The notes below the pieces were generated by a model. It had not been told where the DNA came from. It did not search any database and saw only the letters and a program-made list of their open reading frames with translations. DNA of 64,000 nucleotides from a virus. The first letter of the stretch is position 1. Each line of letters opens with the position of its first letter. The stretch is taken from IMG/VR virus record IMGVR_UViG_3300024182_000001, positions 1 through 64,000 of that record; one strand, 5' to 3'. Positions 11,909 through 61,872 of the stretch are shown here, piece after piece. Made by a program: the position numbers and the translations under genes.

Positions 11909-11960
11909 TAGGCAACACGAAAAAAGTGTGGTACGGAAGTAGATGAACCAAGGGGGTTAC

Positions 11961-12290
11961 ATGCTTCGTATCACGCTGTTCACGCTACTTGTCTGTATAA
12001 TCGGAGTTGCCGCCTACGGGCAAGAACATGAACACGGGATAAACGGGCTCCCGACGTGGTACGATCCGGCTTGCTGCTCACAAAAAGACTGCAAGCCTGT
12101 GAATGACGTGGATATCGAGTTTATCACCGATCCCCAGTGGGGTTATGGGGCGCGCTACAAGCCAACCGGCAACGTCTTCTACAAATATCAGTTCAAGCAA
12201 TCCCAGGACGAGCGGTACCACGTGTGCATCAACCCGGCGGCGGACGGGAATAATGGAGCTTTGTGCTTCTACGACAGAACGGGGGCGTAA
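11961..12290 (+). CDS. small secreted protein with an N-terminal signal peptide
   Basis: An AAGGGGG RBS lies 8 nt before ATG 11961. The N-terminus MLRITLFTLLVCIIGVAAYG|QEH looks like a Sec signal. Confidence 0.45.
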   Translation: MLRITLFTLLVCIIGVAAYGQEHEHGINGLPTWYDPACCSQKDCKPVNDVDIEFITDPQWGYGARYKPTGNVFYKYQFKQSQDERYHVCINPAADGNNGALCFYDRTGA

Positions 12291-12292
12291 AC

Positions 12293-13090
12293 ATGAGAGA
12301 GAAGCTTTGGATCCTGGCAGCCTGCACGCTGCTGGGAGTGTTTACCGGTATGGTCATCCATTCCACCAACAAGCATAAGCCCAAACCGGTTCCGATCGTT
12401 CAGAAAGAAGACAAGGCCGAAGTCTATAGCCGCGTGGAACCACAGCGGGATCCGATCCGCGTCACCAAGACGGCGGACGAATATCTCTGTGACGTCTACA
12501 AGCGCACGCCGGAAAAGCGGGATGCTTCAGGCGACTTCACCTGGAAGGACCAGGCTGCCGCCCGCCGGCTCGGGATGGATGTCTGCACTTACGCGATTGG
12601 CGGTATGTCGCCGGAGCTGAAGGAGCGCTTGGTCACGTTCGGACAGGCTGCCGACGAGAAGGGGATTGAGTGGTCCATGCTGGCCGGCTTTCGCGACGAT
12701 TACCGACAATCGATTGCCAGCGGGCTCAAAGCACGTACTGGCAATAGCGTTCACGGCAACTCGCGCGCCACCAAGGGATATGGACATGGCCGCGCTGTGG
12801 ATATCGTGCCGGTCAAGGGCTCGGCGCACTCGCTGTTCTCCTTCCTCGACATCTTCGGGCCCAAGATCGGGCTGGTGCGCCCCTACAAGGGCTTCGATCC
12901 GAACCATGTCCAACTGGCGTCTTATCCGAGATATGAGGCGCCTGAGCGTACGAAAGTTGCGAAAGTAAAGCATAAAGTGCGGTATGCTAAGAAGGTGAAA
13001 CATCGTACGCGCGTGGCCGTATCTGAATATCGAGACGATCGGGCATGGAGTACACGCAGAGCGCCTTCGAACCGAAGGGACCAGCCGTGA
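12293..13090 (+). CDS. peptidase M15 (VanY/L-Ala-D-Glu endopeptidase-like) with an N-terminal membrane/SAR-like anchor
   Basis: The HGNSRATKGYGHGRAVDIV and DPNHVQL segments fit the M15 zinc-binding motifs. The N-terminus LWILAACTLLGVFTGMVI is a weakly hydrophobic TM segment. Confidence 0.55.
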   Translation: MREKLWILAACTLLGVFTGMVIHSTNKHKPKPVPIVQKEDKAEVYSRVEPQRDPIRVTKTADEYLCDVYKRTPEKRDASGDFTWKDQAAARRLGMDVCTYAIGGMSPELKERLVTFGQAADEKGIEWSMLAGFRDDYRQSIASGLKARTGNSVHGNSRATKGYGHGRAVDIVPVKGSAHSLFSFLDIFGPKIGLVRPYKGFDPNHVQLASYPRYEAPERTKVAKVKHKVRYAKKVKHRTRVAVSEYRDDRAWSTRRAPSNRRDQP

Positions 13091-14205
13091 AGAACTTCGA
13101 CGTTTGCATCGGGCCGTTGCTTGAGCACGAAGGTGGCAACGATGATGATCCGCAGGATCCAGGTGGGCGTACCTCGCGCGGGATCACGCAGCGGGAATGG
13201 GACGTCTGGCGTCGATCCAGGCTCGGGCTTCCCTCTGACGTGTGGAACGCCCCACAAACCGAAGTTCTGAAAATCTATAAGCAGAATTATTGGGACAAGA
13301 TGCGCTGCGATGATCTCCCTGCGGGCGTCGACTATGCGGTTTTCGACTATGGGGTCAACTCAGGCGTGGGACGAGCCGCCAAGGTTCTGCAGGGGCTTGT
13401 CGGTGTCGAACAGGATGGCGAGATCGGGCCCCAGACGATCGCGGCAGCATCGACTTCGCCTCCTGTGGGTACGGTCAACTCCATCTCGGTGGAGCGGTTG
13501 AACTTCCTTCGAGGACTGAGCACTTGGCCCCGGTTTGGCCGCGGCTGGACCACCAGGGTGAACGACGTCAAGGCGCTGGCGCTCAAGATGGCGGCTGGCA
13601 GCGTGGGGAAAGCTGCGCCTCCTCCGGTTCTATCCGATAGTTGGCTTTCCCGGCTGATAAAAGCCCTCTTTGGGGGTTCGAAGCCCGTTTCACCCCCTGC
13701 TCCGCAACCGGATGCGCCTGCTGCGAAAACGCCACCATGGATGGCGTGGGCCGCCAAGGAGGTGGGTTTCCATGAGACCGGAGAAAACCGTGACATCACG
13801 CGCTATACCGTCCCGGCCAAGTGCGGATCGGAGGGGGATCCGTGGTGCGCCATATTTGTTAATGCTGCTCTTGAGTCCACTGGCGTTGCTGGATCTCGCT
13901 CTGCCATGGCTCGATCTTTTGAACATCATCCCGGATTTGTGAAGCTGGACGGTCCTGCTTACGGCGCCATCACGACGATGTGGCGCGGCTCGCCCAGTTC
14001 AGGAACCGGCCATTGCTTCTTCTACGTTGGGCATCTCGACGATAGCCACGTGCTCGCTCTTGGCGGCAACCAATCGGACCAAGTTTGCCGGCAGGCCGAG
14101 CCGCTAAATCGCATGGTAGGATTTTATTGGCCGAAAGGCGTAGGGCTGCCCAAGATCGGGCGAATCGATGTAAGGGCCGATGCAGGCGAAGGAACCGAAA
14201 CATGA
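13045..14205 (+). CDS. endolysin with a GH108 muramidase domain, PG_binding_3 and a C-terminal CHAP/NlpC-P60-like (TIGR02594-type) domain
   Basis: An EGGxxDDPQDPGGRTSRGIT hallmark of GH108. The C-terminal half has DPWCAIFVN and GHCFFYVGH Cys/His motifs. Confidence 0.7.
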   Translation: MEYTQSAFEPKGPAVKNFDVCIGPLLEHEGGNDDDPQDPGGRTSRGITQREWDVWRRSRLGLPSDVWNAPQTEVLKIYKQNYWDKMRCDDLPAGVDYAVFDYGVNSGVGRAAKVLQGLVGVEQDGEIGPQTIAAASTSPPVGTVNSISVERLNFLRGLSTWPRFGRGWTTRVNDVKALALKMAAGSVGKAAPPPVLSDSWLSRLIKALFGGSKPVSPPAPQPDAPAAKTPPWMAWAAKEVGFHETGENRDITRYTVPAKCGSEGDPWCAIFVNAALESTGVAGSRSAMARSFEHHPGFVKLDGPAYGAITTMWRGSPSSGTGHCFFYVGHLDDSHVLALGGNQSDQVCRQAEPLNRMVGFYWPKGVGLPKIGRIDVRADAGEGTET

Positions 14206-14378
14206 GCATGCCATCTTCTCCTACCCCGTCACGCTGGCAGAACGCTTGGGACATAGCCGTACGCGACATTGGGACGATCCCGGCAGTCGTAAGCCTGCTT
14301 GCCGCACATCCCAAGACCTTCGGTGCCACGCTTATCGTCGGAGGAATTCTGGGCTTCTGGCTTGGACGCGTGGTGTGA
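14202..14378 (+). CDS. holin-like small membrane protein (58 aa)
   Basis: ATGA overlap with the endolysin stop and a GAAGGAA RBS. Has a hydrophobic core IPAVVSLLAAHPKTFGATLIVGGILGFWLG. Confidence 0.4.
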   Translation: MSMPSSPTPSRWQNAWDIAVRDIGTIPAVVSLLAAHPKTFGATLIVGGILGFWLGRVV

Positions 14379-14836
14379 TTCTCTTTGTCACCATCGCCAT
14401 CCTGGCGCTTCTGATCGCCGCCTATGCGGCCGGCGGCCGGAAGTGGCTGAAGACCAAGCCGTGGATGGCAGGCTTCTTCGCCAAGATCGAGCCGATGGAA
14501 ATCCTGCTATGGCGTAAGTCCGAGTCGATCCTCTGGGCACGCTTTCTGCAGGGATTGGGGCTTCTCCTAACCGCCCTCACGGCTCTCGGCACGTTCGATC
14601 TATCCCCGCTATTCCCCCTGCTCCCAGACAAATACCGCTGGGTGCAACCGATGCTACCGCTCATCATCTCCGCGGCCGGCGCCATGAATGAGGCGCTTCG
14701 CCGCTCGACATCCAAGCCGCTGGAGCTGGTTGAAGTACCTGACGCTGCGCCTCCACGTGTGGCGGCCGCGGTCGCTACGGCAGAAGCGACTAAAGAAATA
14801 GCCGTAGCCGCTGTTAAAGCAGAGGAAAAACCGTGA
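14375..14836 (+). CDS. membrane protein with 2-3 TM segments (lysis accessory candidate)
   Basis: GTGA-coupled start. TM segments include ILFVTIAILALLIAAYAA and LQGLGLLLTALTALGTF. An alternative ATG start at about 14468 is possible. Confidence 0.4.
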   Translation: MILFVTIAILALLIAAYAAGGRKWLKTKPWMAGFFAKIEPMEILLWRKSESILWARFLQGLGLLLTALTALGTFDLSPLFPLLPDKYRWVQPMLPLIISAAGAMNEALRRSTSKPLELVEVPDAAPPRVAAAVATAEATKEIAVAAVKAEEKP

Positions 14837-15153
14837 TCAAGGAGCTTCTCGACTCGGTTCAGCAGCGGATTGTCGATGCTTTCTCAGGGCTCTCCGAGTT
14901 CGTCTACTTGGCAGAATGGTACCTGCTCGGCTTCGTGATCCTCGCCATAGCCTTGGTCGTAGGCTACTTCTTCAACTTCTCCTGGGTTCGCTCTTTTCTC
15001 GGGTTCATCGTGCTGGCATTCGGGGCTTTCTTAGCCGGGCTTCAAGTAATGGCTAACCACGCCAAGAAGGATAACGAGAGTTATCGACAGAAAATCAAGG
15101 AACTCCAAGCCGAGCAGCGTGAAAAAAATACAAACCACAGTTGGTTTTCGTGA
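14833..15153 (+). CDS. two-TM membrane protein (holin/antiholin-like)
   Basis: GTGA-coupled start with an AGAGGAAAAA RBS. Two hydrophobic helices are followed by a charged tail. Confidence 0.45.
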   Translation: MIKELLDSVQQRIVDAFSGLSEFVYLAEWYLLGFVILAIALVVGYFFNFSWVRSFLGFIVLAFGAFLAGLQVMANHAKKDNESYRQKIKELQAEQREKNTNHSWFS

Positions 15154-15174
15154 TATTAGGAGGGAGGGCTCCTT

Positions 15175-15744
15175 GTGCGGCCCCCGAAGAAGGTTGGAAA
15201 TACGAGGCTGGCAATGTCTGCTCCTAAAAATGGGAACGGAAACGGAAATACTACGATTTATATAAGCATTGCGGCGGGAATCATTGTAGCATTGCTTCAG
15301 GCTTTCTGGGGAGTGGCATGGTCGGGCGTCAATGCCAACATAGACCGCCTGGAAAAACAGATCATTGCCCGCACTCGCGAACTGGAAGCCATACGCATAC
15401 GGGAACACGAAAGGATCGAGAACCAACTATCGGCTCGATTGGCGTTGGTCGAAAAGGATTTTCTCAGGCTGCAGGAGCACCGGGAGTTCACCGTCAGGCT
15501 GGATTCGCAGATTTCCAAGATGGAGGCGCGAATCGGGCTTGCGGCAACACATGAGGAAGTGGATACGCGGCTGGGAATAAATTCTACATCCATCATCCAG
15601 GTGCGAAATGAGATCGGAGAACTGAAAAGAGACCTGGGGCAAACATACCCTCTCAAGGAAGTGCTTGGAAATCTCACTTCTCGTATTGATCGTATGGAGC
15701 AATGGAGTCGTGCCCCGCCGCCGCACCAAGCGCCAGCAAAATAG
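15175..15744 (+). CDS. i-spanin-like protein (N-terminal TM plus periplasmic coiled coil)
   Basis: Strong AGGAGGGAGGG RBS before GTG 15175. TM segment IYISIAAGIIVALLQAFWGVAW followed by heptad-rich sequence. Confidence 0.4.
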   Translation: MRPPKKVGNTRLAMSAPKNGNGNGNTTIYISIAAGIIVALLQAFWGVAWSGVNANIDRLEKQIIARTRELEAIRIREHERIENQLSARLALVEKDFLRLQEHREFTVRLDSQISKMEARIGLAATHEEVDTRLGINSTSIIQVRNEIGELKRDLGQTYPLKEVLGNLTSRIDRMEQWSRAPPPHQAPAK

Positions 15745-16114
15745 TGTATCGCTCAAAGAACACTTGCAGGCTATTACGGATGCCAACGACAGGCGCTATT
15801 CTGAAGTCAATGTCGAGCGCGAAAAAGCCCTGAAGATCAAGGAGCGCGCGGATGAAGTGGCGTTGGGACTGGCGCGTGAGATCCAGACCTACAAGGACGA
15901 AAAAGCTAACGAATTGCGTGAACAAATCAACAGTGAACGTGGTATATACGCTACCAGGAACGAGCTGCAGGCAGCCGTACGTGAAATTTTAGCCGGCAGC
16001 GCGAGGAAATCGGAAACATCGACAGCATTCATATTCTCGATGATAGCCGCCGGTGCCGCTATTGCGGCAATTGTTGGTGTCGTGGTCACAGTTCTTACTA
16101 GAACCGGGCAATAG
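15710..16114 (+). CDS. coiled-coil protein with a C-terminal TM anchor (lysis/spanin-like partner candidate)
   Basis: Overlaps the previous gene in another frame. The C-terminus AFIFSMIAAGAAIAAIVGVVVTVL is a TM segment. The start is uncertain (GTG 15710 or TTG 15762). Confidence 0.3.
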   Translation: MPRRRTKRQQNSVSLKEHLQAITDANDRRYSEVNVEREKALKIKERADEVALGLAREIQTYKDEKANELREQINSERGIYATRNELQAAVREILAGSARKSETSTAFIFSMIAAGAAIAAIVGVVVTVLTRTGQ

Positions 16115-16130
16115 CCCCTAGGAGCCTCAA

Positions 16131-16352
16131 ATGGTTGCTCTTGCAGTTTCGATATTATGGCTTCTGATCGGCGTCATCGTTCTCCTGGGTGTCGTCTGGC
16201 TCGCCCTCTACGTGGTCAAGCTTTTCGTCCCGATTCCCGACAAGATCGAGTTGGCCATATGGTGCATCGTTCTTATCCTCTGCCTTATTGGCGCGCTTAC
16301 GCTGCTTTCCGGCGGTGGAGGTAGCTTGCACGTGCCTTCATTGACGCGATAG
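16131..16352 (+). CDS. small two-TM membrane protein (holin-like, 73 aa)
   Basis: AGGAGCC RBS. Two hydrophobic helices, and it is the last gene of the + strand block. Confidence 0.45.
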   Translation: MVALAVSILWLLIGVIVLLGVVWLALYVVKLFVPIPDKIELAIWCIVLILCLIGALTLLSGGGGSLHVPSLTR

Positions 16353-39959: not shown

Positions 39960-40139
39960 TCATGGCACCCTCATGAATGGATAAGCTTCCTGGCAATGTT
40001 CGGCGCAGTAGGCCGCGCGTGCTCCTTGCCTCTGCAGCGCCGGCTTCCCGCAGAACAGATGCCGGTACTCGTCTTCACCCGTCGGGTACCTGCATCCGCT
40101 CTCGGGTACCTCCCAGATGGGAATTCCTTCATTTTCCAT
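39960..40139 (-). CDS. small Cys/His-containing protein (59 aa, zinc-binding candidate)
   Basis: My own translation gives MENEGIPIWEVPESGCRYPTGEDEYRHLFCGKPALQRQGARAAYCAEHCQEAYPFMRVP. It overlaps the PseI stop by 11 nt. Confidence 0.3.
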   Translation of the reverse strand: MENEGIPIWEVPESGCRYPTGEDEYRHLFCGKPALQRQGARAAYCAEHCQEAYPFMRVP

Positions 40140-41208
40140 CAGCGTTCTCCATCGGGCGAAGTACGCGCTCGAACATTTCCAGCTTTAATGGCTCTCCACG
40201 CTCGATATCACGCGTGGCTTTATTCCCTACAATCTTGTCGATCGTATCCGGCGGCCAGCCGTGCCCCGGCCGGATGCTTCTCACATTCTCGTAGCTGAAT
40301 ACTTCCCCTTTCTTGATATCCTGCACGACGAACAGCGAGCGTCGATACGCTTTATGCACGCTCTCGGTCGTCACTTCCTCACTCTCTTGCATCGCCGACC
40401 ACGTCTCGTAGACCGCCTTGACCATCCGGGCGAACGCCGCCGGCTGCAAACTAAAAGCCTCATCCTCGCTATTCACACCCTCCAGTCTGAAATGCTTCTC
40501 GACCATGCACGCCCCAAGCGCTGTCGCAGCAATTGGAACCTCAAGCCCGAGCGTATGGTCTGACACGCCGTAGAGCGGGGAGTATCTCCGCATCTTGCCG
40601 AGGTTATAATCGCTTGTCTTGGCGGGGTATCCGGAGACGCAGTGGAGCACCACAGGTCCTGTCCCTACATCGCCCAGCCAACTTCCATCCGCGTACACGT
40701 TCGCCACGGCCCCGAGCGCTTTCAGTATGTCGTGCTGGTTCGCCATCCCGGTGGATAAAATAACGGGCTTCCCGGTTCGCGCCGCGTACCTGATCAGTGG
40801 GATATCCGTGATCTCGAACGAGGCAATCTTATATGCCGGGCACTTCAGCTTTTCCAGCATGTCGACGCTCGACGGGTCAAAAACGGAGGCAAACCACTCG
40901 ATCCCTATTGCCTTGGCATGCTCGGCGATCCAGGGGAACCACTCGAACGGCGTCTCACACTTCTTATACAGGTCCCACAGCCGCTTCCCCTTCCAGGGCC
41001 CATCCTTGATAAAAAACTCGTCCCGATCGCAATTCAGCGTGATCGTCTCGGCCGTATATGCCTGCAATTTACAAGCATCGGCTCCGCTCCGCTTGGCGGC
41101 TTCCATCGTTTCCAGGCACCGGTCCAAGCTCCCCATATGGTTCGCGCCTATCTCACAAACGATATAGGGGGCTTCCCCGCCTCCGATTTCTCTACTTCCG
41201 ATTTTCAC
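40129..41208 (-). CDS. pseI: pseudaminic/N-acetylneuraminic acid synthase family protein (NeuB/PseI-like, with SAF domain)
   Basis: N-terminus IGGGEAPYIVCEIGANHMGSLDRCLETMEAAKRSGADACKLQ. The family identification is confident; the exact sugar product is inferred. Confidence 0.8.
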   Translation of the reverse strand: MKIGSREIGGGEAPYIVCEIGANHMGSLDRCLETMEAAKRSGADACKLQAYTAETITLNCDRDEFFIKDGPWKGKRLWDLYKKCETPFEWFPWIAEHAKAIGIEWFASVFDPSSVDMLEKLKCPAYKIASFEITDIPLIRYAARTGKPVILSTGMANQHDILKALGAVANVYADGSWLGDVGTGPVVLHCVSGYPAKTSDYNLGKMRRYSPLYGVSDHTLGLEVPIAATALGACMVEKHFRLEGVNSEDEAFSLQPAAFARMVKAVYETWSAMQESEEVTTESVHKAYRRSLFVVQDIKKGEVFSYENVRSIRPGHGWPPDTIDKIVGNKATRDIERGEPLKLEMFERVLRPMENADGK

Positions 41209-41446
41209 TCAGTACCTCCCTTGGATCATACGTCCCGTTTGTATCTGGTATCCAGCCGGGGCACGTCATGAGCCCGTCGACATACCACACGGCTCCTTCC
41301 TTCTTATGGTCCCGGAAGCACTTGCCTGTGGTCTCGTCTTCTCCCGAGAACGTTTTGAACGAATAGTATCCACACATCCAGCATCGGTGTGGATCATCCT
41401 TGGTCGTAAGCTTCGCATCCGGCGGTGCGGCGTCGAAGATGCTCAT
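41192..41446 (-). CDS. small Cys-containing hypothetical protein (84 aa)
   Basis: ATGA-coupled to the PseC stop. Start chosen at MSIFDAAPPD. Confidence 0.35.
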   Translation of the reverse strand: MSIFDAAPPDAKLTTKDDPHRCWMCGYYSFKTFSGEDETTGKCFRDHKKEGAVWYVDGLMTCPGWIPDTNGTYDPREVLSENRK

Positions 41447-42585
41447 AGCTTCATCTCCTCCGCTACTTTCTTGAAAGCGTTTCCGATCTGCTTGATCTGT
41501 TCTCGCGTTGGCGACCACGCGCAATTCTCGAACAAAAAGAGCCTGCGGTCGTGAAGGTCTTCTGCCACCGGGCACTCTCTTGCATACTTCGAGAACGCCG
41601 GCAGCCGGTACAGCGGCGCCACATATCCCTGGCTCACCGGCACGCCTTCCATGAACAGCCGGCTGGTGAACTCGGCCCGCGCTCCTGACGTTTCGTTCTT
41701 CATGAGAAACGGGATGGCATAATAAACATGCTTGCATCCTTCCCGCACCGCGGGCCCTCGTATTCCAGGAATATCCCCGATCGCCTCGATGATCGCTTCT
41801 GCTTGCTCGATCCTTCCGCCAATCAGCTCGTCCGCCCTTTGGAGCTGCGAGAGCGCAATGGCCGCGGATACCTCGGTAAGTCGGAGGTTGAGGCCAATAG
41901 CCTTTCCCGCCATCTCCCCATGGTTAACGAATCTCCGTATTTTTTCCGCAAGCTCGTCGTTATCCGTGACGCATATACCTCCCTCACCACATTGCAAATG
42001 CTTATGTACGTTGAGGCTGAAAACTCCGATGTCTCCGAATGTTCCGGCATATTCACCTCGCTCCATTGCAAAGGGGGATTGGGAATTGTCTTCGATCACC
42101 GTGATATAGTTGGGTAGTTGTATCATTAAATCCTGTACTGCGGATGGATGCCCGAACAAGTTTGTTATTATAAGAGTTTGGCACCTATCTTCGTTGAAGT
42201 CGATATCGGCTGCGTGCTCAGGATTCATACAGAAGGTTGCATCTTCCACGTCAATAAAATGGGGACGGGATCCGGTGAACATTGGGGCTGCGACAGTAGC
42301 CGACATGGTGTAAGGTGAGACGGCAAACCTATTGAAGGTGGAAAGCCCGACCGCAAACGCCGCCGCCAGCAGCCCCGACGTTGCCGAATTGCATGCAACG
42401 GCGTGTTTGACGTCAAATCGCGCAGCCCACTTTTCCTCCAATTCGCAGACGTAATATCCATTCGATCTCAGCTTGCCGCCGATAAAGCCTGACAGGGTAT
42501 GACCACGCAGCATATTGTACGCGTTATATTTATCGGCGTGACTAACAGCTTCGTACGGCGCAATAGCCCCTTTCACTTCCGGCAT
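41443..42585 (-). CDS. pseC: DegT/DnrJ/EryC1-family PLP aminotransferase (PseC-like sugar aminotransferase)
   Basis: 380 aa of the DegT family, co-operonic with PseB- and PseI-like genes. Confidence 0.8.
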   Translation of the reverse strand: MPEVKGAIAPYEAVSHADKYNAYNMLRGHTLSGFIGGKLRSNGYYVCELEEKWAARFDVKHAVACNSATSGLLAAAFAVGLSTFNRFAVSPYTMSATVAAPMFTGSRPHFIDVEDATFCMNPEHAADIDFNEDRCQTLIITNLFGHPSAVQDLMIQLPNYITVIEDNSQSPFAMERGEYAGTFGDIGVFSLNVHKHLQCGEGGICVTDNDELAEKIRRFVNHGEMAGKAIGLNLRLTEVSAAIALSQLQRADELIGGRIEQAEAIIEAIGDIPGIRGPAVREGCKHVYYAIPFLMKNETSGARAEFTSRLFMEGVPVSQGYVAPLYRLPAFSKYARECPVAEDLHDRRLFLFENCAWSPTREQIKQIGNAFKKVAEEMKL

Positions 42586-43463
42586 AATTCCTCCCTCAAT
42601 TCCTCAACCGACATTCTTCGTGCGTCTTTGCTGCAGTTTGTTTCGTCCATGCTTTCGTGCAGCTTTTCCCAGCGCGGCAACCCGATTACGCGCATCTGCG
42701 CTTGGAATGCCTCAACGAGATCGCCCAGCCGATAGGCCGGCAACCGCGGGATTGCCAGTTCGCCACCTCGCATATCCTTGGCGGTATTGAGCACAAGGTC
42801 GACGGCTTGCTCCATCCGCATGAAGAAGCGCGTGCAGTTGGGATCGGTGACGTTGAGCCACGCGGGGTTCGGGTAGTACTTCTCGCATTCGGCTTTCCAC
42901 AATGGAACCACTGATCCTGTGGAACCCCAGACGTTGCCGTACCGGCAGACTGCAAACCGTGGGCCCTCTGCCCCGGTCGTATTATTTGCCGCGAGAAACA
43001 ACGACTCCATCATCGCTTTGCTGCACCCATATGGCGAGATTGGCTGGAACGCCTTGTCGCTCGATACTCCCACCACTTTCCTGACGCCTGCGTCTTGCGC
43101 CGCTTCTACCACGTTCATGGCCCCGAACACGTTGGTCTTCACCATCTCGATCGGGTTGTAGTGTCCCACCTCGATCCGCTTAAGCGCCGCGGCGTGGATC
43201 ACCACGTCGATACCGCGCATGGCGCGCACCAGTCGATCTCGATCCCGCACGTCGCCGATGAAGAAGCGTAACCGCTTATGTGGATCTAACCCTGCAAGCT
43301 CTTGGGACATCTGGTGCTGGCGGAATTCGTTGCGCGAGAATATGACTATCTTGCTAATATTTTCATATAAGGCGAGCGACGCGAAACGCGTAGTTTCTAG
43401 TAGCTGCTTCGCCAGCGCGGTTCCAAGCGCCCCTGAGCCTCCGGTTATTAAATACGACGTCAC
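42573..43463 (-). CDS. pseB: UDP-GlcNAc 4,6-dehydratase of the PseB/FlaA1/CapD type (short-chain dehydrogenase)
   Basis: ITGGSGALG Rossmann motif. Segments KIVIFSRNEFRQHQM, RFFIGDVRD and HAAALKRIE resemble PseB. Confidence 0.8.
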   Translation of the reverse strand: MTSYLITGGSGALGTALAKQLLETTRFASLALYENISKIVIFSRNEFRQHQMSQELAGLDPHKRLRFFIGDVRDRDRLVRAMRGIDVVIHAAALKRIEVGHYNPIEMVKTNVFGAMNVVEAAQDAGVRKVVGVSSDKAFQPISPYGCSKAMMESLFLAANNTTGAEGPRFAVCRYGNVWGSTGSVVPLWKAECEKYYPNPAWLNVTDPNCTRFFMRMEQAVDLVLNTAKDMRGGELAIPRLPAYRLGDLVEAFQAQMRVIGLPRWEKLHESMDETNCSKDARRMSVEELREELCRK

Positions 43464-45481
43464 GCTCTCACCATCGGTTCAACGCTTCCCCCTTCCAACC
43501 TCTTTTCCACGTCCCCCTTCCTTACCGCTTCCTCGATCACGCCCAGGGTGTGGTCGTACGATTTCAGCACGCGCTTGATCTCGCTCATTCCATGCGCCGC
43601 GCAAATGTTGTGTGAAGCGATGATCAGCGTCCCGGTCGCGATCATTTCCTTCCGGAATAGCGCGGCGATGGAACCGGCGGCAGGCATGCTTGTGTGATCC
43701 TTGAACTTCAGTCGAATGAGTGGCTCTGCACCATACAGCGAGATGTATTCAGTGAGTTCGGCGTCTTCTATTTTCAGGGCTACTTGTGCGCCAAGGTCTG
43801 CGCCTTTGAACCATAATCCGTCGATCACATTATCTCGCTCCAGCTTCTTGATCGTCGCAATCCCGGCCGCCAGGCTTAAAGCCTCTCCGAAGAACGTTCC
43901 GGAATAGAAGATATTATCTGGCGGCTCCATCCGCTTCATAATATCCCTTCGGCCGACGATTGCCGACAGCGGCATCCCGTTGGCCATCGCCTTGCCGAAG
44001 CACGCGAGATCGGGTGTCACGCCATAGAGCTTTTGCGCTCCTCCTAGGTCGAAGCGGAAGCCGGTTATGACTTCGTCGAATATAAGGACGGTGCCGGTCT
44101 CGTCGCAGTATTCGCGCAACGATTTCAGATAAGCTGGATTGCTTTCTGGTTCGACGATAACAGCGGCAAACCGTTCGATACCTGCGAGCCAGGGGTTCCA
44201 TCCAAAAGCTTCGCGCCTGCTGAATACCTGTATTCCTCCTGGGATGCCGATAGTTCGCTCGCAACTCCAGTCTGCCCACCCGTGGTACCCTCCGCATATA
44301 AGTACCCGGTTCCTGCCGGTATAAGCCCGCGCCAACCGCACCGCGCACGTGGTTGCATCCGTCCCGGTCTTGCCGAAGCGCACCATCTCGGCGCAAGGGA
44401 TCAGTCTTACCAGAAGTTCGGCTAATTCAGCTTCGAGTTCGGTGGCAAGGGAAAATGAGATGCCTCGGGAGAGTTGATCTCGGATTGCTCCATCGACGTT
44501 AGGATCACAGTAGCCCAGGATGTTTGGGAGCAGGCCGGACACAAGATCAGTGTATGAGTTACCGTTGACATCCCAGACTGTTCCTCCTTGCCCGTGGGTG
44601 AGGAAGAGTGGGGAGGGTTGGGGGAATTGGAGTTTTGACTTGCTGAATGTTTGTGTGCCCAGCGGAATGACAGCTTCAGCGCTTCCCAAAAGACTTTGGG
44701 AGCGATCATAGCTGCGGCGATATACGGGCTCCTCCACCAACGCATCGTAATACCTCTGATTTATTTCGTGATCAGTATTCAGTTTTCGCAGCGCCGGGCT
44801 TTTGTCCAGAATATCGAGGATAGCCAGTTGTGACGGCGGCCCTTTTTCCCACGGCCAGTTGGTGGCGATTGCCTTGCAGAATTCGTAATCTGCCGCAGTG
44901 TCGAGAACGTATCTTTCTTTATGTTGGTTTGAAATAGGGTTGATAATGGTTCTGGCGGAAAACCGCGACTGGTTGGCCTGTATCCACGTCGTTACGCATT
45001 CCCGATCGATGGGGCGGATGGCTTCTTTGTCGGCGGCACGTAGCGCGTCGATCGTAACCGCCTCACAATCTTGCCCGTCAGCGAAGGTGCGCGGGCTGAC
45101 ATTGCTAGCGTAATCGCAGCCAGTATCTTTTTGGAGCCTGACGACTTCCCCGATAATATTTGGATCAATTAGCGGACAGTCACAGGTGACCCTTATTGCA
45201 ACACTGGCGTTTGCCGCTTCGGCAGCACCGAGAAAGCGAGAGAGCACATCGGTCTCCGAGCCGCGGAAGACATTGACAGCGTGACTGTGGCACCAATCTT
45301 CAACAGTGTCGTCTGCAGGCAGCGTAGACGTAGCGATCCATACTTCATCCACTCCGATTGCAGCTTTCGCGGCGCGCGTAACCCATGCTATGACGGGCTG
45401 GCCGCCAAGATCCATCATCACTTTCCCCCTGAGCCGCGTAGACCCCATTCGGGCAATGCCGATAAAAACTGTTTTCACCAT
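43460..45481 (-). CDS. bifunctional protein: N-terminal cytidylyltransferase (CMP-nonulosonate synthetase/SpsF-like) fused to a class-III (GSA-aminomutase-like) aminotransferase
   Basis: N-terminus VFIGIARMGSTRLRGKVM. C-terminal DEVITGFR, FGKAMANGMP (Lys) and SGTFFGEALS motifs are typical of PLP class-III aminotransferases. Confidence 0.7.
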   Translation of the reverse strand: MVKTVFIGIARMGSTRLRGKVMMDLGGQPVIAWVTRAAKAAIGVDEVWIATSTLPADDTVEDWCHSHAVNVFRGSETDVLSRFLGAAEAANASVAIRVTCDCPLIDPNIIGEVVRLQKDTGCDYASNVSPRTFADGQDCEAVTIDALRAADKEAIRPIDRECVTTWIQANQSRFSARTIINPISNQHKERYVLDTAADYEFCKAIATNWPWEKGPPSQLAILDILDKSPALRKLNTDHEINQRYYDALVEEPVYRRSYDRSQSLLGSAEAVIPLGTQTFSKSKLQFPQPSPLFLTHGQGGTVWDVNGNSYTDLVSGLLPNILGYCDPNVDGAIRDQLSRGISFSLATELEAELAELLVRLIPCAEMVRFGKTGTDATTCAVRLARAYTGRNRVLICGGYHGWADWSCERTIGIPGGIQVFSRREAFGWNPWLAGIERFAAVIVEPESNPAYLKSLREYCDETGTVLIFDEVITGFRFDLGGAQKLYGVTPDLACFGKAMANGMPLSAIVGRRDIMKRMEPPDNIFYSGTFFGEALSLAAGIATIKKLERDNVIDGLWFKGADLGAQVALKIEDAELTEYISLYGAEPLIRLKFKDHTSMPAAGSIAALFRKEMIATGTLIIASHNICAAHGMSEIKRVLKSYDHTLGVIEEAVRKGDVEKRLEGGSVEPMVRA

Positions 45482-45990
45482 CGTGCAAATTCTCCATGAT
45501 ATTTTTTAGCGGCTTTTTGGTATGCTGTGGCTGCGTCGCTGATGTTGTTAAAATAGCCTAAAAATTTGCGCTGTTTATTGGTTGTTATTTGTGCCAGCCA
45601 TTTTTTCATATCCGGATGCCAGCATACGCCTTTAACGCCGCTTGTGTTTCGGATCGATGGTTTTTTATTATATGTATTTTGAGGCCGCGTGGCATCTCGC
45701 AGATTGGAAATTCGGTTGTCACTTCTATTTAAATTTCTATGATCTAGATCATTGATAGGCCAGCGACCACGTTCGTAGAACCAAGCTACTCTAGCAGCTT
45801 GAAAAAGCGTACCATCAACTCTTATCTGTATGTATCCGTCAGCTTTTAGGGAGCCGGCTACGTCACCTGTTTTACTGTTTCCGCGTGATATAAGGCGCGT
45901 AAATACGCCGGTGGCACGATCATAGTGAAGTACTTCTAAAAGCCGCGCGTGGAGTAGTTGCTTTTCTTTTTTCCTGTTTATTGCGGTCAT
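45475..45990 (-). CDS. HNH-AP2 homing endonuclease
   Basis: HNH_3 motifs in ARVAWFYERGRWP and DLDHRNLNRSDNRISNLR. AP2 DNA-binding domain in GVKGVCWHPDMKKWLAQITTNKQRKFLGYF. ATGA-coupled at both ends within the operon. Confidence 0.75.
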   Translation of the reverse strand: MTAINRKKEKQLLHARLLEVLHYDRATGVFTRLISRGNSKTGDVAGSLKADGYIQIRVDGTLFQAARVAWFYERGRWPINDLDHRNLNRSDNRISNLRDATRPQNTYNKKPSIRNTSGVKGVCWHPDMKKWLAQITTNKQRKFLGYFNNISDAATAYQKAAKKYHGEFARW

Positions 45991-46868
45991 CCCAACCCCA
46001 CCTTTTCCTTAACTTGCCGGCAAATCTCCAGCACTCGAAGCCCATCTTCACCCGTGGCCCATTGAACTGGCGGTTCTGCCGCGGTTCTAGTTGGGGCTAT
46101 GCCACCTATGAACGCCTGCATCTCATCGATATAGTCGTCATTCCACTCCCCACCGAACTGCTGCGTCATCTTGCCGAACGACACTTGCCGTCCGAGCATA
46201 TCCAGCCCGATGTTCTTCTCGGTACCGACGATCCAGCCTTCCCGGATTTCGTTCCGGGTCACATAATCCAGGTGGATGGTACTTCGGGCGCCGCTGTCGT
46301 GTTCAAGCACAATGTCGGCAATGTCATCCTTGCCGTCCACGACATGCACGGACGCCGCCACCACCTTCGCTGGCCCCAGCAGATAAAGCGCCAAGTCGAT
46401 CTCGTGCGACCAGTTCAGCACGACTCCATCACGCAGATAATCCGGCTTGTCGTTGTATTGCCCGCAGATGAAGGTAGCCCACAGCGGCGTGCCGATATGC
46501 CCGGCGTCGATCCAATTCTTGGCCGCTTTGATGCAGGGATGGAACCTGAGAAAATAGCCGAGAAATAGTTCTTTAAGCAGGTCTTCTTGCCAGAACTGTG
46601 CGATCTGGGCGCAAGTTCCTAGCGGCTTTTCCATAAAGATTTTGGCTCTTGCGGACATGGTAGCCCAGTCGTCGTAGTGACGGTTGGTGGGAGTGCATAT
46701 GAGAATAGCGTCGCTTTCAATTACTTCATCTCGATCCCAGAGTACGCCGCTGAGCGCCAACCTTTTTTTCATATCAGTGTCATACCCAATAACCTGGTGC
46801 CCCATCATTTTAAGATTACGCGCATGTCGCATCCCGATCGAGCCCAGCCCAAGAATCCCTATCTTCAT
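45987..46868 (-). CDS. Gfo/Idh/MocA-family NAD(P)-dependent oxidoreductase
   Basis: MKIGILGLGSIGMRHA Rossmann motif. The start was moved to M17, which is ATGA-coupled. Confidence 0.65.
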   Translation of the reverse strand: MKIGILGLGSIGMRHARNLKMMGHQVIGYDTDMKKRLALSGVLWDRDEVIESDAILICTPTNRHYDDWATMSARAKIFMEKPLGTCAQIAQFWQEDLLKELFLGYFLRFHPCIKAAKNWIDAGHIGTPLWATFICGQYNDKPDYLRDGVVLNWSHEIDLALYLLGPAKVVAASVHVVDGKDDIADIVLEHDSGARSTIHLDYVTRNEIREGWIVGTEKNIGLDMLGRQVSFGKMTQQFGGEWNDDYIDEMQAFIGGIAPTRTAAEPPVQWATGEDGLRVLEICRQVKEKVGLG

Positions 46869-47482
46869 GTTCTCACCGGTATTGCGTTTGTTCGTTTTTG
46901 CAGGATGGTTATGCACTCATCTTCCACATATAGGCGCGACCTATCCTGTACGTGATACCAAGGGTGTGCCGTCCACAATTCCGAGAAATCGAGATGGTAC
47001 GCGAGTAAACCTTCTTTCGGACTGTATGGAACGGCGTATGCAGGCTGGAGCGTGTTGAAATCATGAATAACCAGCCACCCTCCATCCGCCAGCAGCCTGT
47101 CCGCTTCCGCCACGATCCGGAACCATTCACGTGGCTCCGTAACATACAAGCAGAACCCGAAGATGATCATGTCGAACGTGCCGCCAAGCCATGGCTCGCT
47201 GTATCCGAACTTGCCCCAGCAGACATCATCCAGCCCGCTCGTAATAGCGACTGCCACGGCATCCTGGCTGGTATCAATCCCCGACACCCGGCAGCCGTAT
47301 TTATCTCGCATCTTGCGCAGTCGCCAGCCGTTGGAACATCCGACTTCGAGCACCCGCTTCGGGCGGATCAGCGGCAATAGCCCGAGTAGATCGCCGACCG
47401 GATCGCGCTTGCCGAGCTTCTCCTTGTTGCGATGGTACCAGGCATCGCCCTCGCCATTTAGGAATGTGTCGCTCTGGCTCAT
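46865..47482 (-). CDS. class I SAM-dependent methyltransferase
   Basis: Motif I in VLEVGCSNG, with an acidic residue at the end of beta-2 (GID). Confidence 0.65.
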   Translation of the reverse strand: MSQSDTFLNGEGDAWYHRNKEKLGKRDPVGDLLGLLPLIRPKRVLEVGCSNGWRLRKMRDKYGCRVSGIDTSQDAVAVAITSGLDDVCWGKFGYSEPWLGGTFDMIIFGFCLYVTEPREWFRIVAEADRLLADGGWLVIHDFNTLQPAYAVPYSPKEGLLAYHLDFSELWTAHPWYHVQDRSRLYVEDECITILQKRTNAIPVRT

Positions 47483-48240
47483 TTGTTTCCTAGTACGTAG
47501 AGGAAGTTGGGGGAGTAGAATTCTGGGCTAAATCCGAGTGATGGCAGTTGCGAGGCGACTTTATTGATCAGGTGCCCATAAGCCGGCTCTTTATCATCAG
47601 CCTTGCAGAGAGCGGCGTACACGGCGCGCGAGATTATATAGTAGAGGTTGCCGATATTCTCGCGACCGATGATATCGAAATGCGTGCTGGCGAACGGCTC
47701 GAATTCTCCTATCCACATATAGCGGTTATGCCAGCGTTCTTCGATCTTATGCAGGTCGAATTGAGCGCGTAGGTAGTTTAGGCTATGCAAGCCGTCTTTG
47801 AAGTTTTCAACGAGTATGATCGTTCCGCCCGGCTTCAGGCACTTCTTCATTTCCAGCAGCGCCACCTGCTGTTCTTCCCAACTCGCGAGATTGATCAGGC
47901 AACGTCCGGAGATGATGATATCTTGGTTATGCGCGTGCTTCGATAGTTCCCGCACGTCGCCGACAATAAAAGCGATATCGGAGTACGTTTTTCGCGCTTC
48001 ATGAATCATCTTCTCTGAGTAATCAACTCCGACGAAATCCGAGTCACAGGCTTCCCAGAACTTCTGGGTCGAATACCCGTTCCCACACCCGACGTCCAAT
48101 ATCTTTCTTCCTGGCTCCAGGTGCTCGATAATCTTCCTGATTTCCAGGTCCCGATAGAAATGATCCGGAGCGGTGGCGAGATCGGACGCGCCATGTTCTT
48201 GCGCTTGGGCGTCCCAGAATTCTTTTACTTTATCATTCAT
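47479..48240 (-). CDS. class I SAM-dependent methyltransferase
   Basis: Motif I in ILDVGCGNG. Start chosen at MNDKVKEF, which is ATGA-coupled. Confidence 0.65.
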   Translation of the reverse strand: MNDKVKEFWDAQAQEHGASDLATAPDHFYRDLEIRKIIEHLEPGRKILDVGCGNGYSTQKFWEACDSDFVGVDYSEKMIHEARKTYSDIAFIVGDVRELSKHAHNQDIIISGRCLINLASWEEQQVALLEMKKCLKPGGTIILVENFKDGLHSLNYLRAQFDLHKIEERWHNRYMWIGEFEPFASTHFDIIGRENIGNLYYIISRAVYAALCKADDKEPAYGHLINKVASQLPSLGFSPEFYSPNFLYVLGNK

Positions 48241-48416
48241 TCTGGAAGCTCCACTTTGATCCAATGGGTAAAACCAGCTTTTTCTGGTTCTAGATAATGA
48301 GTAGCGCTGCTGGTAAACCACGCCACCGGATGTGGAGCATCTTTATTCCATACAAGTATGATGGATCCATCACGTGGAGCCGCGCAGTATTCCAGATTTT
48401 CCCATTCCCACTTCAT
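48237..48416 (-). CDS. small hypothetical protein (59 aa)
   Basis: My own translation gives MKWEWENLEYCAAPRDGSIILVWNKDAPHPVAWFTSSATHYLEPEKAGFTHWIKVELPE. ATGA-coupled on both sides. Confidence 0.3.
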   Translation of the reverse strand: MKWEWENLEYCAAPRDGSIILVWNKDAPHPVAWFTSSATHYLEPEKAGFTHWIKVELPE

Positions 48417-60939: not shown

Positions 60940-61872
60940 ATGGAAACGAAAGCTCCTATTACTCATGCACGCGTTCGAGCACTTCTTGAGTATGATGCGG
61001 AAACAGGCGTTTTTCGTCGCAATCTTAGGAAATCAGATTTGCGCGAAGATGAGCCGCTTTCGCATGAGCGTTTGCTTCAAGTTCTCGAATATGATCCTCT
61101 TACGGGCATCTTTATCTGGAAAGAAAAAACAGGTCATAGATCGGTCATTGGAACTGAAGCCGGAACAAATAAAATTGTCACTAGCGGCGTGTATCGATAT
61201 ATCGCTGTCGACGGTGTCAGGTACCTTGCCCATCGACTTGCATGGTTCTGGGTCCGAAAAACGTGGCCCCGACTTCTTAAATTCAAAGACGGTGACTCCC
61301 TTAATTGTGCATTTGAAAACCTCGAAGATGCCGGAGAAGCTGTTGGAAGTGGTAAAACTAGTGAAGGATACGTCTACATTAGACTTGATGGCTCTGACTA
61401 TCCCGCAGCGCGACTCGCATGGTTTTGGACGTATGGAGAATGGCCGGGACTTCTTCGTTTTCGAGACGGTAATAAAGAAAATCTTCGGTTGGGTAATTTG
61501 CGAGATTCTGCAGCGGAGCCAGCGTACGCCAAAAGCGATCAAGAGCGGTATGAAGATCGAAAATCAGTGTACGCAAGAGATCGTGAACGGTCTCGAAATC
61601 TTGCATTCAAAAACAAGTATGGAATCTCACTGGCAGATTTCCGACGCATGGAAGCCGAGCAAAACGGCGTCTGTTCTATCTGCGGCCAACCGGAAACTAT
61701 CGAGCGTAACGGAAAAGCTCGGCTGCTCGCTGTTGACCACTGCCATGACACCGGCAAGGTTCGAGGGCTGCTTTGCGGGAAATGTAATCCGATGATCGGG
61801 TACGCAGATCACAGTATTGACATCCTCACGCGCGCTATTGATTATCTGAAGCGCACGAACGGAGCTGACTAA
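60940..61872 (+). CDS. composite homing-endonuclease-like protein: two degenerate HNH_3-type repeats plus a C-terminal endonuclease VII-type nuclease
   Basis: The repeats YRYIAVDGVRYLAHRLAWFW...DGDSLNCAFENL and YVYIRLDGSDYPAARLAWFW...DGNKENLRLGNLR parallel the HNH-AP2 protein at 45475. The C-terminus CSICGQPE...LAVDHCHDTGKVRGLLCGKCN is EndoVII-like. Confidence 0.6.
   Translation: METKAPITHARVRALLEYDAETGVFRRNLRKSDLREDEPLSHERLLQVLEYDPLTGIFIWKEKTGHRSVIGTEAGTNKIVTSGVYRYIAVDGVRYLAHRLAWFWVRKTWPRLLKFKDGDSLNCAFENLEDAGEAVGSGKTSEGYVYIRLDGSDYPAARLAWFWTYGEWPGLLRFRDGNKENLRLGNLRDSAAEPAYAKSDQERYEDRKSVYARDRERSRNLAFKNKYGISLADFRRMEAEQNGVCSICGQPETIERNGKARLLAVDHCHDTGKVRGLLCGKCNPMIGYADHSIDILTRAIDYLKRTNGAD

Follow-up and report, generated by a model that had tools for sequence, protein, structure and literature searches.

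A probable lysis cassette with two peptidoglycan hydrolases and six small membrane proteins in an SU10-like metagenomic phage

The DNA analysed here is the 64,000-nucleotide stretch that forms positions 1 to 64,000 of IMG/VR record IMGVR_UViG_3300024182_000001, referred to as the window. It carries nine co-oriented plus-strand genes, which we call A to I, packed into positions 11943–16352, with B to I lying within 12293–16352. An earlier note on this DNA had described the latter region as a lysis cassette with two different peptidoglycan hydrolases and six small membrane proteins. Every element it described was recovered at the same positions, and our open reading frame (ORF) calls agree with those of an independent gene caller, which gives products of 115, 265, 386, 58, 153, 106, 189, 134, and 73 aa for A to I. 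The source genome, ENA ERZ27256733 k141_280774, is that of an SU10-like metagenomic phage. At 71,657 bp (~71.6 kb) it is complete or nearly complete, and 7.6 kb of it lies beyond the window. The host is most likely an alphaproteobacterium.

The late operon runs from terminase through an SU10-type portal, adaptors, a phrog_3287 structural protein and ejection proteins to A–I, after which the genes are convergent. Because the strand switches downstream, the cassette is the 3' end of this operon. The terminase (Terminase_6C) and portal genes lie upstream of the cassette and the SU10-type adaptors in the 7.6 kb beyond the window. Also upstream are the phrog_3287 structural protein, a 1563-aa DNA-ejection-like protein and a 550-aa internal-virion-like protein with a short nucleotide match to a phiM5 internal virion gene. 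This 67-nt match was the only one returned by a blastn search of the region against GenBank phages, and tblastn searches with A, B, F, G, and H against 50,697 GenBank phage genomes found no relative.

Four consecutive junctions in the cassette are 4-nt overlaps, B/C (GTGA), C/D (ATGA), D/E (GTGA), and E/F (GTGA), which bears out the GTGA/ATGA coupling noted before. The endolysin gene C is in this way translationally coupled to B upstream and to D, E, and F downstream, while G, H, and I form a second set of membrane protein genes. A and B are 2 nt apart. The 21 nt between F and G contain GGAGGGAGGG, a Shine-Dalgarno sequence of G's own, and the 16 nt between H and I contain AGGAG. G and H had been described as overlapping in another frame; their overlap measures 35 nt, and it is terminal (11 codons) and not that of an embedded gene. 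Promoter and terminator scans gave counts at or below shuffle expectation.

Gene C (13087..14205, plus strand) encodes a cytoplasmic endolysin of three modules, a GH108 muramidase domain, a PG_binding_3 domain and a TIGR02594 putative Cys/His peptidase domain. The GH108 match (PF05838) scores 88.8 bits against a cut-off of 21.2 (E 3.4e-25), PG_binding_3 (PF09374) reaches 22.6 bits, just under its cut-off of 24.6 (E 1.2e-4), and residues 217–348 match the NCBIfam model TIGR02594 with 81.2 bits (cut-off 70.55). C also matches the phrog_315 endolysin family at 1e-47, and the GH108 proteins 7dnp, 2ikb, and 2is5 in the PDB align to its residues 4–170, with 7dnp covering residues 11–170 (E 5.8e-38). 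C is thus a GH108 endolysin. The three modules stand as first described, but the label CHAP/NlpC-like for the last of them derives solely from membership in TIGR02594, which we take to be linked to the CHAP/NlpC superfamily; Pfam CHAP and NLPC_P60 gave no match to C at E<=0.1, and a PDB sequence search with the C-terminal domain found no relative. This module has a Cys (PWCA) and a His (GHCFF), and on sequence the designation CHAP-like is plausible. The recorded gene caller chose ATG 13045 as the start of C, which yields the 386-aa product and a 46-nt overlap with B. The start is most likely GTG 13087, since the 66%-identical ortholog in the related contig L009 begins at the equivalent MKNF with the same 4-nt overlap. 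C has no hydrophobic segment or signal sequence by Kyte-Doolittle hydropathy, the source of all our transmembrane (TM) and topology calls, and therefore needs a holin. No peptidoglycan hydrolase domain was found elsewhere in the genome; its recognisable muralytic enzymes are confined to the cassette.

The second hydrolase, B (12293..13090, plus strand, 265 aa), is predicted to be an exported, membrane-anchored zinc peptidoglycan peptidase of the LAS/M15 fold. Sequence profiles do not place it there: its best Pfam match, VanY, is below threshold (15.7 bits against a cut-off of 25, E 0.014), NCBIfam gave no match, and a PDB sequence search returned nothing usable. By contrast, the top 32 PDB matches of the AlphaFold2 (AF2) model in Foldseek are all LAS/M15 proteins, among them Ply500, LdcB, VanY, VanXYc, LysB4, LysECD7, VanX, and the Sonic hedgehog N-domain (Shh-N). 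The best of them is 2vo9 (E 2.7e-4, probability 1.0). The model has a mean predicted local distance difference test (pLDDT) score of 71.7, with the core above 90, and its TM-scores are low (0.27/0.46) owing to disordered termini and loops. In an alignment of 41 sequences, FRDDYRQ, S152-x-H154-G, G-Y-G-x-G-x-A-x-D170, and D202-P-x-H205-x-Q are invariant, as are the individual residues H154, D170, H205, D202, R134, and Q139; H154, D170, and H205 are the putative Zn ligands. B would accordingly share the fold of the LAS/MEROPS M15 enzymes (Ply500 2vo9, LdcB, VanY, LysB4, LysECD7) and retains their signatures, His, Asp, and His with an Arg and an Asp/Glu-x-x-His. It differs from these enzymes in falling below every Pfam M15 threshold, in an insertion of at least 8 residues between the S-x-H-G and G-x-A-x-D motifs, and in having conserved N-terminal helices of its own (YL..VY.R.P.K.D..GDFTWKD) as well as a cationic tail. 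The tail motif (T/V)RYAKRxKHxTR(V/I)A is common to the phage-type homologs, which have 13–22 K/R/H among their last 45 residues. Thus the designation M15-type, as first given, is apt for the predicted fold and active site, yet B belongs to no curated M15 family. The B family comprises at least 1,718 homologs or clusters, and among the 120 homologs listed the B region never falls under a precomputed Pfam domain. Many family members come from large chromosomal contigs, in some cases named Xanthobacteraceae, and fusions to DPBB_1/RlpA occur. A secreted protein of L001 (L001:5320-6585) is a fusion in which a canonical M15-like domain (SKHAFGNALD…GHFE) precedes a B-type domain.

The hydrophobic N-terminal segment of B spans residues 5–23 (LWILAACTLLGVFTGMVIH). 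It has a Kyte-Doolittle value of 1.95 and small residues at 7 of 19 positions. The segment had been called like that of a signal-anchor-release (SAR) protein; its hydrophobicity is evident, but its SAR-like nature is not established, as the N-termini of B homologs are very different, with varied anchors and in some cases cleavable Sec signals. Export of B therefore appears to be conserved, and a lipoprotein or SAR mechanism does not. We rejected the possibility that B is a lipoprotein processed at LAAC (residues 8–11; VAGC in L009). The Cys is buried in an 18-residue hydrophobic helix and is not conserved: it is replaced in the closest homolog (78% identity), which reads LAAS there, and is absent from most of the others. 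SAR endolysins that work with pinholins (P1 Lyz, phage 21 R21/S21, Mu gp22 with the releasin gp25) likewise have an N-terminal membrane segment ahead of a periplasmic wall-degrading domain, and so a holin-triggered release of B is conceivable. Unlike them, B has a moderately hydrophobic segment of a type that is not conserved, with cleavable signals in some homologs, and it would be a metallopeptidase that coexists with a classical cytoplasmic endolysin.

Related contigs show how these genes are combined elsewhere. In L009/L010, homologs of B (56% identity), C (66%), a 107-aa protein, F (56%), and G (54%) lie directly upstream of the phrog_3287 structural gene. L007 encodes a 450-aa lysin with a TIGR02594 module and, further on, E (68%), F (75%), proteins of 60 and 118 aa, G (40%), H (74%), and a 75-aa protein, followed by an integrase. 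In L107/L108 the order is an A-like protein, a 491-aa lysin, a 61-aa protein, E (69%), a TolB-like protein, F (32%), G (69%), proteins of 76 and 71 aa, and again an integrase; the TolB-like protein between the E and F homologs is a beta-propeller of 294 aa (L107:3299-4183). L012 has A (48%), an Amidase_2/SH3 endolysin, proteins of 65 and 127 aa, an 82-aa Rz-like protein with an overlapping lipoprotein gene and, further on, a 55-aa protein with two TM segments and G (45%). In L008, a PG_binding_1 protein is followed at some distance by G (47%), a 199-aa coiled-coil protein with a C-terminal TM segment, and a 55-aa two-TM protein with a DUF3309 domain. The 199-aa protein is H-like in layout, unrelated to H, and weakly matches PHROGs annotated as hemolysin. 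Thus different endolysins are accompanied by the recurring sets B-C-F-G, E-F-G-H-I, and A-endolysin…G, and G itself follows three different endolysin types. Such interchangeable parts recombining around a muralytic enzyme are typical of lysis cassettes. The earlier identification of the region as a lysis cassette is upheld by this recombination, by the position at the end of the late operon, by the presence of the only recognisable muralytic enzymes of the genome, and by the coupling of the endolysin gene to membrane protein genes.

These loci also bear on a different role for B, and possibly A and C, namely that they are virion-associated enzymes packaged with the ejection proteins that penetrate the cell wall at infection. 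B comes after the 1563-aa and 550-aa proteins described above, and a B-type domain is embedded, beside lysozyme-like sequence, in internal-virion-like proteins of 1,073–1,640 aa (L002/L003:2956-7875, L004:2840-6058). In addition, the PHROG matches of C's TIGR02594 domain include one annotated as baseplate hub/tail lysozyme. However, the B-C-F-G set is not tied to the ejection genes. In L009/L010, at a distance from any ejection gene, B and C keep their 4-nt overlap and precede the structural genes together with F and G. A Sec-type N-terminus would be needless in a packaged protein, C is overlap-coupled to three membrane proteins, and the genome has no alternative endolysin. We consider a role at infection unlikely.

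Downstream of the endolysin gene lie the six consecutive small membrane proteins that had been noted, D to I, each with at least one predicted hydrophobic helix. D (14202..14378, plus strand, 58 aa), ATGA-coupled to C and GTGA-coupled to E, is a hydrophobic hairpin or one-TM protein and a candidate holin or antiholin; it has no homolog in the fetched loci and is the least supported gene of the cassette. E (14375..14836, plus strand, 153 aa) has an N-terminal TM segment, one or two weaker hydrophobic segments, and an Ala/Glu-rich tail. It matches no family in Pfam, PHROG, or NCBIfam, and its orthologs in L007 and L107 (68–69% identical) both lie within a G-containing cassette. F (14833..15153, plus strand, 106 aa) has two TM segments (residues 31–49 and 55–73) and a charged C-terminal tail that ends in WFS. 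In L007 (75%), L009/L010 (56%, abutting G), and L107 (32%) an ortholog of F precedes G. F matches no known holin family and nothing among GenBank phages. I (16131..16352, plus strand, 73 aa), the last gene of the operon, encodes a two-TM protein whose position matches that of small two-TM proteins after G/H in the related cassettes. The 75-aa protein of L007 and the 71-aa protein of L107 are homologous (49% identity, E 3e-15), and I aligns to them at 30–33% identity with the common motif LGVxW…P…G-x-HV; a direct BLASTP comparison of I with the L007 protein was not significant. Membership of I in PF28077, the family reported for a neighbour of H in L017, was not reproduced with the Pfam release used. 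When Pfam was run on the small two-TM proteins of several loci, the only match was DUF3309, for the 55-aa protein of L008.

By a permissive definition of a holin, a small protein with a TM domain and a charged C-terminus encoded beside an endolysin, D, E, F, and I all qualify, F most clearly, which is no proof of function. None of the four has a significant match to a described holin family in Pfam, PHROG, or NCBIfam. By architecture F is the best candidate for the holin, and a holin/antiholin set among the small proteins, also suggested earlier, is compatible with the data.

G (15175..15744, plus strand, 189 aa) is a predicted type-II membrane protein with a conserved cytoplasmic PKNGNGNGN motif, one TM segment (residues 30–48), a helical periplasmic domain of ~140 residues, and a Pro-rich C-terminus. 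Heptad-type hydrophobic periodicity in G is above that of shuffled sequences (p ~0.04), so that the predicted layout, a type-II inner-membrane protein with a coiled-coil periplasmic domain, is that of an i-spanin. The family is small, with 25 homologs; its conserved core is TRLGINSxSIIQVR…LKRDLGQTY. A HMMER search of 1.84 billion representatives with G gave 130 sequences at E<=1e-3, only 18 of them at <=1e-10, and the halo around the family consists of TM-plus-helix proteins of similar length. Among 61 remote relatives, 4 match the Rz-like spanin family phrog_739 and 5 match phrog_462, which is suggestive at best of spanin kinship. Peptide patterns found no relatives of G in IMG/VR. In the fetched loci G is always inside, or at the end of, a peptidoglycan hydrolase cassette.

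An i-spanin would be expected to have a lipoprotein partner encoded in an embedded, overlapping, or adjacent gene, and none was found for G. No credible lipobox ORF is present in any frame of the cassette, on either strand of the whole window, or in the 7.6 kb outside it, in agreement with the earlier statement that no lipoprotein-type o-spanin is recognisable. The cassettes of L007, L008, and L009 also have no lipobox ORF. We rejected two ORFs in other frames of G (15318-15554 and 15365-15580) as embedded o-spanins; neither has a signal peptide. L112 has a G-like gene (26% identical), and 250 nt upstream of it lies a lipoprotein gene. In L012, the 82-aa Rz-like protein (phrog_1026, E 0.008; L012:6355-6736) is overlapped by a canonical 79-aa lipoprotein ORF (MQKKLWLRLMLCLILPLMTAC…) that is absent from the recorded gene calls, and the two look like an overlapped i-/o-spanin pair in a locus that also contains G. 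From these sequence comparisons G appears to be an orphan i-spanin-like protein with a partner that is not phage-encoded.

H (15710..16114, plus strand, 134 aa) is predicted to be a tail-anchored protein with one long charged helix and a C-terminal TM segment; its gene begins in the 35-nt overlap with the end of G. The AF2 model has an uninterrupted helix of 85 residues (15–99; pLDDT above 90 over the core) followed by a TM helix at residues 104–133, and the heptad-type periodicity exceeds that of shuffles (p ~0.02). The H family is very large, with at least 1,476 homologs (clusters at 90% identity) at 50–80% identity and a nearly invariant core of 50 residues, DRRYxEVNxEREKALKIKExADxxALxLAREIQTYKDEKANELREQI. 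It has no match in Pfam, PHROGs, the PDB (searched with an H profile), or GenBank phages. H has no signal peptide, lipobox, or N-terminal hydrophobic segment and should therefore act at the cytoplasmic membrane.

The hosts of the H family are diverse. Among GTDB genomes we found only seven occurrences, all in metagenome-assembled genomes (MAGs): in Alphaproteobacteria, in Acidobacteriota (a 5.2-Mb chromosome, in a prophage context), in Gemmatimonadales, and in four Actinomycetota (one on a 552-kb contig). The host assignment of short MAG contigs may be wrong. The 80 H loci retrieved from IMG/VR range in G + C content from 37% to 73% and include actinophage-type markers, namely Rv2525c-like lysins within 1.5 kb of H and, at least 2.5 kb from H on the same contigs, WhiB and Rpf-like transglycosylase domains.

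The neighbourhoods of H connect it to cell wall degradation. We sampled same-strand ORFs of 130–520 aa within 1.5 kb of H, which gave 150 ORFs from 68 loci. The commonest Pfam families among them are all wall-related (PG_binding_1, Peptidase_M23, Phage_lysozyme, Rv2525c-like, GH25, SLT_2, and SLT), and GH108, DPBB_1, and Amidase_2 also occur. Among 131 ORFs at a distance of at least 2.5 kb, the two Rpf-like transglycosylases are the sole wall-related proteins, the rest being portal, protease, capsid, recombination, and WhiB proteins. Peptidoglycan hydrolase domains are thus present in at least 12 of the 150 near ORFs compared with 2 of the 131 distant ones (Fisher p=0.013, a conservative count). 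Small TM proteins are likewise frequent: at least one lies within 1.5 kb in 66 of the 80 H loci as against 18 of 48 background anchors, and two or more in 43 of 80 as against 8 of 48. Individual loci illustrate these arrangements. A GH19-like endolysin, a TM protein, and a lipoprotein precede H in L018, a tail gene and an Amidase_2 gene precede it in L023, and in L014 a GH25-like gene is followed at some distance by a 127-aa protein with an N-terminal TM segment that overlaps H and then by a two-TM protein. On this sequence evidence, H is associated with lysis cassettes, both in phages of diderm hosts and in phages whose hosts appear to be monoderm.

The earlier note had proposed that G and H could form a non-canonical spanin. 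In such a two-component system, H would replace the lipoprotein o-spanin and reach the outer membrane by its C-terminal hydrophobic helix. The i-spanin architecture of G, the few remote relatives that match an Rz-like spanin PHROG, and the lack of any lipoprotein o-spanin in the genome agree with this proposal, as does the overlap of the two genes (35 nt here, 26 nt in L007), which recalls that of overlapped spanin genes; moreover, it has been noted that proteins of non-canonical topology might act as spanins (Kongari et al., PMC6139136). However, H has neither a lipoprotein signal nor any other signal sequence, and export of the 100-residue, highly charged N-terminal helix in its model would be unlikely. 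The family is also not restricted to phages of diderm hosts, as H occurs on Actinomycetota-assigned contigs with actinophage-type neighbours, and H is therefore not an o-spanin. Each gene also occurs without the other. G is found without H in L009/L010, L012, and L107, and most of the 80 IMG/VR loci have H without G, with an N-terminal-TM neighbour directly upstream in only 14. In L012, G lies downstream of a canonical Rz-like/lipoprotein pair that is present in addition to it. We therefore regard the proposal as very unlikely.

The nearest functional analogue of H may be XhlA of Bacillus subtilis PBSX; for PBSX lysis, XhlA, the holin XhlB, and the amidase XlyA are all needed (PMC5589764). Like XhlA, H is small, has an N-terminal helical/coiled-coil region and a single C-terminal TM segment, and has the gene of a small two-TM protein next to its own and an endolysin gene close by. 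Unlike XhlA, it is longer, has an almost invariant charged core, and is found in phages of several phyla. The two have no detectable similarity in sequence, as none of 25 H family members matches Pfam XhlA at E<=0.01.

Another possibility is that G, H, and I are no lysis genes but a membrane-protein module with an accessory role, such as superinfection exclusion or modification of the host envelope, that sits at the end of the operon and merely neighbours the lysis genes. The 21-nt gap with its own Shine-Dalgarno sequence sets G-H-I apart from the overlapped B–F block, these genes lie beside the integrase end of the prophage in temperate relatives, and H occurs singly in actinobacterial chromosomal loci. 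The enrichment of peptidoglycan hydrolases and small TM proteins around H in 80 unrelated viral contigs argues against such a module. So do the location of G in L009, where it abuts F partway through the late operon, ahead of the structural genes, and its occurrence after different endolysin types in five independent contexts. We regard an accessory role of this kind as unlikely.

Taken together, the A–I region is, in our view, probably a holin-dependent, dual-hydrolase lysis cassette with an XhlA-like accessory protein and an outer-membrane step for which candidates can be named. Late in infection, C would accumulate in the cytoplasm while B would leave it by way of Sec and stay tethered to the inner membrane on its periplasmic side. 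The holin lesion would be made by one or more of D, E, and F, with F the best candidate. This lesion would release C, which would cut glycan strands and peptide stems, and would also free or activate B, which would cut peptide links. At the cytoplasmic membrane H would assist the holin or set its timing, probably with the two-TM protein I, a pairing analogous to that of XhlA with the holin XhlB in PBSX. G would span the periplasm in the manner of an i-spanin. The candidates for the outer-membrane step are G, acting on a host component, and the cationic tail of B.

Several observations weigh against this cassette model. The topology calls come solely from hydropathy, and none of the six small proteins matches a characterised holin, antiholin, spanin, or XhlA family in Pfam, PHROGs, or NCBIfam; the individual roles are therefore assigned from architecture and position. 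The B-like domains in giant internal-virion-like proteins, and the place of B shortly after the ejection proteins, make a role in infection possible, and the B homologs that have cleavable signals or are chromosomal would better fit a non-lytic wall-remodelling enzyme than a lethal lysin. The neighbourhood statistics for H come from a simple ORF caller. In two Actinomycetota MAGs, isolated H genes (L020:5010-5468, L021:5929-6408) share one chromosomal position, immediately downstream of glmU/prs-like genes and upstream of a ~1,000-aa SARP-type regulator with no obvious phage genes nearby, so that the family need not be lysis-specific. Finally, G, H, and I are at the operon end, beside integrases in temperate relatives, where morons accumulate too.

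The cassette resembles those of the lambda S-R-Rz/Rz1 type in its clustering at the late-operon end, in its signal-less muralytic enzyme beside small membrane proteins, and in its overlapping genes and mosaicism between related phages. Unlike lambda-type cassettes, it has two hydrolases instead of one and six membrane proteins, none in a described holin or spanin family, and no lipoprotein o-spanin or u-spanin was found anywhere in the genome. Phages without spanins are known, including Rhizobium phage 16-3 and RcapMu, and account for roughly one in seven phages of diderm hosts (Kongari et al. 2018, PMC6139136). The alternatives proposed for them are positively charged endolysin tails or non-canonical membrane anchors (PMC6139136). 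The present phage likewise has a presumably diderm host and no identifiable spanin, and it has candidates that can be set beside those alternatives, the conserved cationic tail on B and the orphan i-spanin-like G. It differs from the phages of that study in that no sequence relationship was found and in that the cationic tail, whose role is putative, is on a secreted LAS-fold peptidase and not on a muramidase.

The first gene of the operon segment, A (11943..12290, plus strand, 115 aa), is outside the region described by the earlier note. It encodes a small secreted protein with six cysteines and an N-terminal signal peptide, in which a hydrophobic stretch (residues 6–24) is followed by AYG|Q. 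Homologs lie directly upstream of the unrelated Amidase_2 endolysin in L012 (48% identical; L012:4137-4451) and upstream of the lysin in L107 (26% identical; L107:620-997), and the Cys-rich motif WYDPxCCxQxDCxPV…RYHxC…LCFY is thus found immediately upstream of three different wall hydrolases. No match to A was found in Pfam, PHROG, or GenBank phages. We considered A as a partner of G that is not a lipoprotein and rejected it: the two co-occur only in the window, L012, and, weakly, L107, and A always adjoins the hydrolase and not G.

Other parts of the genome carry further features. A nonulosonic-acid-type sugar-biosynthesis cluster on the minus strand (window 40129-46916) comprises NeuB+SAF, a DegT/DnrJ/EryC1 aminotransferase, a Polysacc_synt_2-type dehydratase/epimerase, a CTP_transf_3+Aminotran_3 fusion, and a GFO/IDH/MocA oxidoreductase. 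A methyltransferase gene is at window 47479-48321. A gene for an HNH_3 + Endonuclease VII fusion is inserted among head/structural genes (window 60940-61872), and beyond the window the two SU10_adaptor genes flank a GIY-YIG gene (L105:7354-8250).

Phage lysis cassettes and spanin-less phages are known; what is new here is the composition, an unannotated LAS-fold peptidase family (B), a very large and conserved tail-anchored family tied to lysis genes across phyla (H), and an orphan i-spanin-like family (G). A broader reading, which we offer only tentatively and hold to be less likely than its negation, is that H and its two-TM neighbour, often with a type-II coiled-coil neighbour such as G, constitute an unrecognised class of membrane proteins of lysis cassettes that spans phyla, and that in the present phage the outer membrane is breached without a spanin. 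If this joint reading is true, H would be a new holin-control or membrane-disruption component with an almost invariant charged helix that binds a universal bacterial target, and the outer membrane would be breached by B with its cationic tail and/or by the orphan G acting on host envelope tethers. If none of it holds, the locus is merely another mosaic lysis cassette. By its predicted fold the B family is an unrecognised branch of the LAS peptidoglycan peptidases; it has at least 1,718 members, and many of these are chromosomal, in genomes of the Xanthobacteraceae type. The lysis genes of uncultured soil phages are almost unannotated, and H is a candidate for a new, widely used lysis component among them, while the cassette as a whole lends itself well to testing how phages may breach the outer membrane of diderm hosts without spanins.

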